DNA from: a virus
Virus record (IMG/VR): IMGVR_UViG_3300021425_003051
Location: 3,019 to 67,018 of that record
DNA: 64,000 nucleotides
Direction: 5' to 3' (one strand)
Position numbers and translations under genes: made by a program. How positions within the stretch are numbered: the stretch's first letter is position 1; the number at the start of each line of letters is the position of its first letter. Shown in pieces: positions 1,770 to 26,201 of the stretch. Under the pieces are notes generated by a model that did not search any database, was not told the DNA's origin, and saw only the letters and a list, made by a program, of their open reading frames with translations.

Positions 1770-1787
1770 AGACCTGTCGTTCATCCG

Positions 1788-1988
1788 ATGCTATCACTCC
1801 TGTTGGCATTGACCTTAGCCCATCATCAAGACGGTTCCCCCTACGGGTGGCACATGTCATGTGAAAGGTTCCTACAAAGACGAACAGAGATCCAGGCAGA
1901 TCCAAACCTTGACCTTAGGTCGAAGATGAATCTAATAGGGTATCTTAAGACTAAAGTAGAAGGTAAATGTGAAGGAGTGTATACATAG
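1788..1988 (+). CDS. small two-Cys protein inside aptamer 1 loop (66 aa)
   Basis: MLSLLLALTLAHHQDGSPYGWHMSC...GKCEGVYT; hydrophobic N-terminus; ATG at 1788. Confidence 0.7.
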   Translation: MLSLLLALTLAHHQDGSPYGWHMSCERFLQRRTEIQADPNLDLRSKMNLIGYLKTKVEGKCEGVYT

Positions 1989-2023
1989 GACGCAAGTAAG
2001 TCGCGGAACGGAGCGTTCATCCC

Positions 2024-2185
2024 ATGTTTGAATTATTACTTTACGCTTCTATCAATTGCAAAGATGCTTCTGATATGATCAGTCGTATCCGAGCAAATGA
2101 CAGTGTAAATAAAATCATTCAAACCGAGGTGATTGAAACCTTAAAGGAAGCAACACCTGAATGTAAGTGGGACGCACACGACTGA
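2024..2185 (+). CDS. small two-Cys protein inside aptamer 2 loop (53 aa), paralogue of 1788-1988
   Basis: Hand-translated MFELLLYASINCKDASDMISRIRANDSVNKIIQTEVIETLKEATPECKWDAHD; below ORF-track cutoff. Confidence 0.7.
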   Translation: MFELLLYASINCKDASDMISRIRANDSVNKIIQTEVIETLKEATPECKWDAHD

Positions 2186-2251
2186 AGGAACGGGAAAACG
2201 GATCCAGCGCAAGCTGAGAAGGTTAACTTTCCATTCTTTTAGGAGTCAATC

Positions 2252-2950: not shown

Positions 2951-3126
2951 TGGGCATGTACGAAGATTTAGATACGTTCGAGAAAGCACTTCAACACTTT
3001 GGAACAAGAGTTGAGGTCTATACTTCCATGGAGATGGGTGGTAAGATATCAGCTGAAGATGCCTATCAATTCATCAAAGCAGAACTAAAGGAACTCAAGA
3101 AAGTGAGAAAACAGGAGAGAAAATGA
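2950..3126 (+). CDS. hypothetical protein (58 aa)
   Basis: MGMYEDLDTFEKALQHFGTRVEV...KQERK; TAATG and ATGA coupling on both sides. Confidence 0.65.
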   Translation: MGMYEDLDTFEKALQHFGTRVEVYTSMEMGGKISAEDAYQFIKAELKELKKVRKQERK

Positions 3127-26117: not shown

Positions 26118-26201
26118 GGGAATGTGGTGGAATCGGTAGACACACCAGACTTAAAATCTGTTGACCTTAAGGTCGTGGGGGTTCAAGTCCCCCCATTCCT
26201 A
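26118..26201 (+). tRNA. trnL: tRNA-Leu (anticodon TAA)
   Basis: GGGAATG/CATTCCT acceptor, CAGA-CTTAAAA-TCTG anticodon arm, long variable arm, GGTTCAAGTCC T-arm; no encoded CCA. Confidence 0.93.

Follow-up and report, generated by a model that had tools for sequence, protein, structure and literature searches.

A nested relative of glutamine riboswitches appears to close around two small genes in T4-like cyanophages

Introduction

Can a riboswitch hold whole genes inside its own sensor? Riboswitch aptamers are regarded as compact noncoding domains that lie ahead of the genes they control. The question is raised by a leader in a 64,000-nucleotide (nt) stretch of viral DNA (positions 3,019 to 67,018 of IMG/VR record IMGVR_UViG_3300021425_003051; hereafter the window), in which motifs of the glutamine riboswitch alternate with two short open reading frames (ORFs), ORF1 and ORF2, upstream of a third, ORF3. 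We conclude that this leader is probably a composite, nested glutamine riboswitch that carries a gene in each of its two P2 loops (P2a and P2b), controls ORF3, and competes with translation of the nested genes. Five helices, together with a helix at the Shine-Dalgarno (SD) sequence of ORF3 (the anti-SD helix), are established by covariation; ORF1 and ORF2 are coding, and compact relatives of the element belong to the glutamine riboswitch family. The direction of switching and a reciprocal control of the nested genes are what we infer from this architecture. All parts of the leader described below lie on the plus strand.

Long-range P2 helices enclose two genes

An initial annotation, made from the letters of the window alone, had divided the leader into two tandem units, each with a 5' half, a gene in the loop, and a 3' half. 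In the first, the 5' strand of P2a (UCCGAUG, 1784-1790) holds the ORF1 start codon (1788-1790) and pairs with CAUAGGA (1984-1990), which overlaps the ORF1 stop codon UAG (1986-1988), with ORF1 itself (1788-1988; 66 amino acids [aa]) filling the loop. In the second, the 5' strand of P2b (UCCCAU, 2020-2025) overlaps the ORF2 start codon (2024-2026) and pairs with GUGGGA (2167-2172). The last codons of ORF2 (2024-2185; 53 aa; stop codon UGA at 2183-2185) are the 3' strand of P2b, the inner junction CGCACA (2173-2178), and the 3' strand of helix P3 (CGACU, 2179-2183), its stop overlapping the boundary between P3 and the E-loop. Six of the seven P2a positions pair in the window (G1787/A1987 being unpaired), and P2b has six pairs, one of which is U-G. 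Every motif and ORF coordinate of the initial annotation was found as given, including the start codons in the 5' strands of P2 and the ORF2 ending W-D-A-H-D-stop on the aptamer 3' half, and its proposal that whole genes fill both P2 loops is borne out by the compensatory pairing and coding statistics that follow.

A search with a 21-nt motif of the first 3' half returned at least 120 viral contigs, and 141 loci were then analyzed. The first hairpin is short in 95 of them (GTTCA 16-51 nt upstream of the motif), with abundant compensatory variation, and encloses an ORF1 homolog in 42; the second encloses an ORF2 homolog in 130 and is short in 7. Loop spans reach 203-238 nt in ORF1-bearing P2a and 140-203 nt in ORF2-bearing P2b. 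Even so enclosed, the strands match each other, with a mean contiguous helix of 5.07 in ORF1-bearing P2a compared to 3.96 for shuffled partners (27 distinct strand pairs; 0/1000 shuffles) and of 5.26 in ORF2-bearing P2b compared to 3.87 (35 distinct pairs; 0/1000 shuffles). For P2a and P2b, respectively, the mean helix is 5.32 and 5.36 with cognate partners, compared to 3.22 and 3.77 after swapping. A permuted compact aptamer, in which 3' half 1 and 5' half 2 would share a P2, was considered and rejected (mean pairing of 3.22 versus 5.3 for cognate strands).

The compensatory types of P2a include UCUCAUG/CAUGAGA, UCUUAUG/CAUAAGA, UCCUAUG/CAUAGGA, and UCCAAUG/UAUUGGA, and which stop codon ORF1 uses (UGA, UAA, or UAG) changes along with the P2a 5' strand and the context of the start codon. 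Those of P2b include CCCC/GGGG, UCUAUG/CAUAGA, and GAUUAUG/CAUAAUC, the change to CCCC/GGGG turning Asp into Gly in the ORF2 protein. Among 121 distinct sequences, the first four base pairs (bp) of P2b are paired in 99.6% of cells, and three of the four change on both sides. Beyond the 7-nt core, the 30 nt at either end of ORF1 likewise coevolve toward pairing (duplex of -19.4 kcal/mol versus -15.3 +/- 0.28 kcal/mol for shuffled ends; 0/200), with a smaller effect for the ends of ORF2 (-8.29 versus -7.54 +/- 0.12). The comparison of loci with and without loop ORFs, which the initial annotation had proposed as a check, shows that the P2 helices are kept by compensatory changes. The long-range helices P2a and P2b, enclosing a 66-codon and a 53-codon gene, are real.

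The association also holds when loci are fetched by protein. Among 288 relatives found with the ORF1 protein, the 5' half lies no more than 12 nt from the ATG in each of the best 80, and 78 of these 80 have the full 3'-half motif, with one cut by the contig end and one variant. Among 62 loci found with the ORF2 protein, both halves are present in 53, a variant 5' half (CGUUG) occurs in 3, and 6 run off the contig. A lack of conserved flanking motifs around homologous ORFs, which had been named at the outset as grounds for abandoning the idea, is the opposite of what we observe, the 5' half being found beside 80/80 ORF1 homologs.

Two variants of the first loop were noted along the way. L018, L074, L080, L089, L129, and related loci have a longer ORF1 of 67-68 aa. 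Its frame stays open across both the P2a 3' strand and the junction and ends at the UAA in AAGUAA, so that the E-loop strand is coding (G-R-K-stop). L123, L132, L134, and L139 have a doubled 5' half (ACGTTCATCTTATG, 9 nt, AGTTCATCTTATG) some 206-228 nt upstream of the motif, and therefore two alternative P1/P2 5' strands precede ORF1.

Both nested ORFs encode two-cysteine microproteins that are full-length members of known phage protein families, ORF1 of phrog_6471 (E = 2.7e-37) and ORF2 of phrog_504 (E = 1.5e-22). Across 22 distinct ORF1 sequences, differences at the three codon positions number 3455/2519/6830, and 4624 of 8519 differing codons are synonymous; in the other frames, ~950 of 9000 are synonymous and 116-143 stops appear. 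For 43 distinct ORF2 sequences, the corresponding figures are 19568/9802/24613 and 9381 of 32725. Judged by these substitution patterns, ORF1 and ORF2 are genes under protein-level selection. BLASTP found no match between the two proteins, and Pfam gave no significant match for either. A profile comparison of the two families with hhalign (95.2%, E = 2.5e-8, 41 columns) aligns their Cys...Cys cores, and ORF1 and ORF2 are thus distant paralogs. The AlphaFold model of ORF2 is a three-helix bundle (mean predicted local distance difference test score of 84), for which Foldseek returned no significant match in the PDB (best E = 2.6). Ahead of ORF2, G2010 and the loop of the inner hairpin read GGAG, likely the SD sequence of ORF2; GGAG is found in 233/308 ORF2-bearing loci, compared to 0/8 compact loci (Fisher, p = 1.7e-5).

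Assignment to the glutamine riboswitch family

Rfam searches of the window gave no glutamine-family match at the gathering cutoff, nor did a search of 1700-2300 (601 nt) at E <= 10, nor one of 2150-2200; the window's own contig likewise gave none. When the query was trimmed to 61 nt, the second 5' half produced 3'-truncated 10-bit matches to both RF01739 and RF01704. The models miss the window because of its insertions, and their silence is not evidence against the family. This is in line with the expectation of the initial annotation that standard covariance scans would overlook the element.

The assignment comes from relatives in which both hairpins are short. These compact loci (4 of 12 scanned) score 38.4-43.6 bits on RF01739, where the cutoff is 35, and their core strands differ from those of the window at only two positions. 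Infernal treats the compact pair of units together as one type-1 aptamer whose P3 holds an insertion of 38-48 nt, in the order first CGUUC, A, P2; CGCAAGUA; P3 (AGU...ACU); GAAG; and last GAACG. In the consensus alignment of these relatives the halves of the E-loop are split, AGUA lying in unit 1 and its partner GAA in unit 2, and compact unit 1 alone has no gathering-score match in L003, L005, L009, or L023. Placed by this alignment, the RF01739 junction CG-N-AAGUA and both E-loop strands (AGUA/GAA) are present around P3; in the window, the junction CGCA and the 5' E-loop strand AGUA (1991-1998, with AGUA at 1995-1998) align to CGGAAGUA of the RF01739 consensus. P2 follows directly after CGUUC-A, as RF01739 requires, and is kept by compensatory changes whether or not it contains an ORF.

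The noncoding core is near-invariant in ORF-bearing loci (CGCA, AGUA, the A after P1, and GAAG-GAACG past the ORF2 stop). Positions 1991-1998 are fixed or near-fixed by the search motif itself in the motif-anchored sets; among the best 80 loci fetched by the ORF1 protein, 78 match the 3'-half motif that contains the junction and E-loop strand. The claim that the core motifs are those of a glutamine riboswitch stands on two legs, the match of the 5' half to the RF01739 and RF01704 consensus and the RF01739 scores of the compact relatives. Sequence comparison thus supports the element as a relative of the glutamine riboswitches, and its RNA would presumably bind L-glutamine.

Topology: one nested aptamer

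How the four P1 strands pair cannot be read from the window, where all four are the same two words. The initial annotation had proposed two independent tandem aptamers, each with its own P1 (1778-1782/2006-2010 and 2014-2018/2188-2192) and a gene in each P2 loop, an arrangement that the window permits, that the literature could seem to favor by its count of glutamine doublets (available parts of PMC9481103), and that finds some backing in the minimum free energy (MFE) fold of the full-length leader, in which 1778-1782 pairs with 2006-2010 (p = 0.93). The P1 strands appeared invariant until the ORF2-protein search uncovered loci with CAACG...CGUUG, and a scan for the variant added at least 120 contigs. 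Of 343 distinct loci, 309 have all four strands, 27 are incomplete, and 7 are seeming exceptions that prove to be regular-expression picks inside the ORF1 coding sequence. The complete loci fall into three classes: outer CGUUC/GAACG with middle GAACG/CGUUC (217 loci), the same outer strands with middle CAACG/CGUUG (79 loci), and outer CGUUU/AAACG with middle CAACG/CGUUG (13 loci). Outer CGUUC thus occurs with GAACG in 296 loci and CGUUU with AAACG in 13, with no mixed case, and among the middle strands GAACG occurs only with CGUUC and CAACG only with CGUUG. Because these covariation classes never mix, we conclude that the outer strands pair with each other (CGUUC at 1778-1782 with GAACG at 2188-2192, followed by G2193) and that the middle strands form a hairpin of their own (2006-2018: GAACG at 2006-2010, loop GAG, CGUUC at 2014-2018). 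Pairing P1 within each unit, in contrast, would produce C.C, G.G, or U.C mismatches in the 92 loci with middle CAACG/CGUUG.

P3 points the same way. Its 5' strand (AGUCG, 1999-2003) pairs with 2179-2183 across ORF2, and across 133 loci the combinations are AGUCG/CGACU in 113, AAUCG/CGAUU in 14, AUUCG/CGAAU in 3, and a wobble in 3, with no mismatch. P3 pairs without exception (100%) in the 121 distinct sequences and shows 14 double changes, pair 2000:2182 being GC in 106, AU in 11, UA in 3, and GU in 1; its covariation score is 0.083 versus 0.045 shuffled (0/500), and slid partners pair in 26-50% of cells. Scanning for changes at G2000 returned 18 contigs, in which G-to-A is always accompanied by C-to-U ~200 nt downstream and G-to-U by C-to-A, and a scan for variants at U2001 returned 0 contigs. 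In P1 the 5' half of unit 1 covaries with the 3' half of unit 2, a single P3/E-loop helix spans ORF2, and the strands of P3 and of the E-loop are split between the supposed units, of which the first, in its compact form, gives no gathering-score match alone, as noted above. Two separate tandem aptamers are scarcely tenable on this evidence. Folding of 1776-2195 agrees, the nested structure being the MFE (-118.6 kcal/mol, compared to -115.2 kcal/mol for the tandem one; outer P1 p = 0.87, inner hairpin p = 0.87, P3 p = 0.5), and the pairing 1778-1782/2006-2010 of the full-length fold (P1a) may belong to the ligand-free state.

It could also be asked whether the second unit is a type-2 (Glutamine-II/Downstream-peptide) aptamer, with CGUUC (2014-2018) forming a pseudoknot with GAACG (2188-2192) in the loop of the SD-proximal hairpin. 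The compact second unit of L030 does score 34.0 bits on RF01704 (cutoff of 33), the SD-proximal helix aligns to the 3' hairpin of RF01704, and CGCAAACGA resembles its CGCAGUUCGA. The second CGUUC, however, becomes CGUUG in 92 loci while its would-be partner stays GAACG or AAACG, and since this change is unmatched in the second 3' half, the pseudoknot is not maintained, whereas the middle-strand hairpin is. We regard a type-2 second unit as very improbable.

Read from covariation, the element is one canonical type-1 (glnA-type) aptamer with a second, circularly permuted core inserted in its P3. The outer layer consists of P1 (1778-1782/2188-2192), P2a (1784-1790/1984-1990), the predicted E-loop (1995-1998/2184-2186), and P3 (1999-2003/2179-2183), and the inner core within P3 consists of the hairpin 2006-2010/2014-2018, A2019, P2b (2020-2025/2167-2172), and the junction CGCACA. 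In L176, L261, L262, and L273, we additionally observe that the inner junction covaries (AGUCG-UAG-GAACG with CGCAGACG versus AGUCG-CG-GAACG with CGCAAACG), which could be an extra pair extending P3.

Expression platform and ORF3

Downstream of the aptamer lies a platform (2182-2245) in which CUGAAG (2182-2187, comprising the end of P3 and the 3' E-loop strand GAAG at 2184-2187) is opposed to a stretch 5' of, and running into, the ORF3 SD sequence AGGAG (2241-2245). Across the family, CU(G/A)AAG on the 3' side of the aptamer faces (C/U/A)UU(C/U)AG. CUAAAG or AUAAAG faces CUUUAG in 37/37 loci, and CUGAAG (..UUCAG/..UUUAG opposite) faces C in ~50 loci and U in ~27, with A never opposite C. The MFE fold of the full-length leader (1776-2254; -138.8 kcal/mol, z = -3.77) pairs 2182-2196 with 2228-2242, which excludes P3, the E-loop, and outer P1. 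The platform strand takes in the E-loop along with the final two pairs of P3, so that the aptamer and anti-SD structures are mutually exclusive.

ORF3 (2252-2416) encodes a 54-aa peptide with two YRG motifs that belongs to phrog_545 (E = 1.1e-28) and is weakly DUF4278/IF17-like, and a YRG-repeat ORF lies 3' of the aptamer in every example inspected (one per strand-pair class). The initial annotation had described a riboswitch that contains, rather than precedes, regulated genes; this part has to be amended, because the covarying anti-SD helix links the aptamer to ORF3, so that the switch also precedes a regulated gene through a conventional platform. Cyanobacterial glutamine riboswitches switch on DUF4278/IF17 genes upon glutamine binding, as described in the available parts of Klahn 2018 (PMC6212724). 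The spacing of the platform varies: the clade of the window has an extra element (2197-2240) made of ACGGAUCC, a hairpin CAGC-GCAA-GCUG (2205-2216), and GAGAAGGUU, and many relatives have only ~25 nt between the aptamer and the ORF3 ribosome site.

Insertions in a third loop and the question of sensing

The inner hairpin loop is a further site of insertion. In L403 (Synechococcus phage Sf-CH5, PV340852.1; 575-1175), this loop holds an annotated homing-endonuclease gene (~570 nt), so that three different riboswitch loops each hold a gene in Sf-CH5. The insertion point lies between GGAACGGAG-CGTT and TCTAAT-CGTTCATCC. L304 (2256-2831) has a 192-aa ORF at the same site, for which Pfam gave no match, and remnants of 70-110 nt are found there in L073, L111, L239, L240, and L250-L254. 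Separately, the second 3' half of the L238-L240 lineage reads CGACC-CAAG for CGACU-GAAG, with an A.C mismatch in P3 and a change of the first E-loop base; the sensor in this lineage may be decaying or retuned.

Such cases raise the possibility that the helices are real but that the ORF-bearing RNA no longer senses glutamine, the pairings serving to join the ORF ends for mRNA stability or ligand-independent control of translation and the core motifs being kept partly as coding sequence (W-D-A-N-D) or translation signals. Large insertions are tolerated in three loops, a homing-endonuclease gene among them, the complementarity of the ORF1 ends reaches past the aptamer core, and one lineage has a changed E-loop strand. 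Against this, the noncoding core is near-invariant in ORF-bearing loci, including those fetched by protein, and the invariant residues are the ones that define the RF01739 consensus. Compensations in P3 and outer P1, moreover, arise within ORF2-bearing lineages, and the anti-SD helix still competes with exactly the 3' strand of the aptamer. We therefore consider a loss of sensing unlikely and retain the glutamine-responsive, nested riboswitch as the preferred reading.

Proposed mechanism

A sigma-70-type early promoter (1740-1769; TTGACA at 1740-1745, an 18-nt spacer, and TACAAT ending at 1769) has 11 of 12 consensus matches and puts the transcript start at ~1776, as the initial annotation had read it; relatives have a TTGAC..TATAAT pair equally far upstream of their 5' half. 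From it a single early mRNA of ~750 nt would be made, with the putative riboswitch as its 5' part (1778-2193). CUGAAG and its flank would pair either within the aptamer (the end of P3, the E-loop, and P1) or beside the ORF3 SD sequence, and glutamine would tip this choice by stabilizing outer P1, the E-loop, and P3. The aptamer fold would free the ORF3 ribosome site and thereby, in the manner of cyanobacterial gifB leaders, switch on the IF17-like peptide. This fold would also bury the start codons of ORF1 and ORF2 in P2a and P2b, as well as part of the ORF2 ribosome site, with GGAG reaching into the inner hairpin's loop of 3 nt. Ribosomes translating the nested genes would, in turn, have to open P2a, P2b, and P3 and would thus dismantle the sensor, and since the ORF2 stop codon (2183-2185) lies at the P3/E-loop boundary, a terminating ORF2 ribosome would also cover the anti-SD strand.

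The inner core has the succession P1-A-P2-CGCA but no E-loop of its own, and it might bind a second glutamine. Taken to its full extent, the element could act as a two-way integrator, in which the glutamine-bound fold turns ORF3 on and both microproteins off, ribosomes and ORF2 termination reset or override the sensor, and the two nested cores bind two glutamines through a shared helix. We put this forward tentatively, as an extension that is possible but short of an even chance. If true, it would be the first natural riboswitch in which the aptamer itself is translated.

Several observations count against the nested, glutamine-responsive reading. The P2 helices of riboswitches usually form without ligand, and for that reason the structure by itself does not imply that the nested AUGs are masked in a ligand-dependent way. 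A helix of 5-7 bp around a translated loop of 140-240 nt is thermodynamically marginal, and the AUG part of P2b is paired in only 79%, 30%, and 30% of the 121 sequences. GGAG is absent from 75/308 ORF2-bearing loci. The window does not reach the gathering cutoff of 35 bits on RF01739, and ORF3 matches DUF4278 with E = 0.0014 and 19.4 bits, below the cutoff of 25.3. The MFE fold of the full-length leader joins the first CGUUC to the middle GAACG, as described above. Finally, because of the endonuclease insertions and the altered E-loop strand, the sensor may be dispensable or decaying in some phages.

Genomic context and transcription

The element lies beside a glutaredoxin-like gene and thyX-like and phoH-like ORFs on a 67-kb viral contig of a T4-like cyanophage, and the relatives of the window are Synechococcus and Prochlorococcus myoviruses. 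The same layout was found in 426 phage records and hundreds of viral contigs. The cyanophage genomes that have it number in the hundreds, are marine as well as freshwater, and include that of the model phage Syn9 (gp196, gp197, and gp198), for which a literature search for transcription starts yielded only unrelated papers. A 30-aa hydrophobic ORF (2422-2513) follows directly after ORF3, its ATG at 2422 overlapping the ORF3 end, and is probably in the same operon; L002 and L020 have comparable small hydrophobic ORFs after their ORF3.

Logan contigs from marine metatranscriptomes (two studies) cover 1797-2524, and none covers 1600-1784 or 2525-2700; such contigs show no starts, ends, or strand, DNA carry-over is possible, and they were taken only as presence in RNA libraries. 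Apparent joints from 2022/2023 to 2169/2170 were rejected as RNA processing; with 4-10 letters substituted at the joint, they represent relatives whose P2b hairpin is short. Elsewhere, the window has a tRNA gene with a long variable arm (26118-26201; Rfam tRNA, 58.5 bits), and the related contig L012 has a PhotoRC-II RNA (1021-1116; RF01717, 57.1 bits) ~7 kb upstream of its riboswitch.

Comparison with known systems

With the type-1 glutamine riboswitch (RF01739; the Synechocystis gifB/IF17 leader as presented in the available parts of PMC6212724), the element shares P1 CGUUC/GAACG, the following A, P2, CG-N-AAGUA, the E-loop AGUA/GAA, and P3, as well as competition of the 3' strand with the ribosome site of a downstream gene, a DUF4278-type one in cyanobacteria and the weakly DUF4278-like ORF3 here. 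It differs in that P2 closes on a 66-codon gene instead of a tetraloop (~4 nt) and that a second core of ~175 nt takes the place of the 4-nt loop of P3. A further difference concerns two positions that we take to be a long-range pair, C after CG and G after GAACG, where the Rfam consensus has G and C, respectively. Type-2 riboswitches (RF01704) resemble the element in the C after the CG that follows P2, the 3' word GGAACGG, the downstream YRG-repeat peptide (weakly DUF4278-like in the element), and the ribosome-site hairpin. Their defining pseudoknot partner, however, is not the covarying one here, and the present element includes both an E-loop and a P3.

Group I and II introns host homing-endonuclease or maturase ORFs in peripheral loops. 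They offer a precedent for a conserved RNA fold that tolerates whole genes in terminal loops, a likeness made closer by the Sf-CH5 loop with its homing-endonuclease gene, but introns are ribozymes whose ORFs serve mobility or splicing, whereas the fold described here is that of a metabolite sensor. Because the inserted genes start inside helix strands, translation and folding would exclude each other in this element.

Tandem glutamine riboswitches have been counted as 157 doublets and 4 triplets with pseudo-cooperative behavior (Sherlock et al. 2022, PMC9481103, available parts). The cyanophage element likewise has two CGUUCA-P2-CGCA cores on one leader, but here the cores are nested, with one P3, one E-loop, and one expression platform, and the P1 strands pair outer-to-outer and inner-to-inner. 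The available parts of PMC9481103 mention no nested form, phage example, or internal gene. Genome papers (PMC9964418 and PMC9602691, available parts) mention that T4-like cyanophages have glutamine riboswitches. In the portions of the literature searched, among them passages of PMC2864571, PMC6212724, PMC9481103, PMC9004378, PMC9964418, and PMC9602691, we found no genes inside a glutamine aptamer and no nested topology with a shared P3.

Significance

In these phages compensatory evolution has preserved a well-studied aptamer fold around two translated genes and, in some of them, around a homing-endonuclease gene. Scans for known families accordingly undercount riboswitches with large loop insertions, and the glutamine doublets of cyanophages, at least those examined, are one nested structure with a shared helix, for which cooperativity would have to be modeled differently. 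The mutual exclusion of translation and ligand sensing is directly testable on one natural RNA, and the element is both widespread and experimentally tractable. Cyanophages probably read the nitrogen status of their host through it at the start of infection, setting a glutamine-synthetase-inhibitor-like peptide and two microproteins; if the proposed two-way control is true, cyanophages would have a means of choosing early, by nitrogen status, between two sets of genes.

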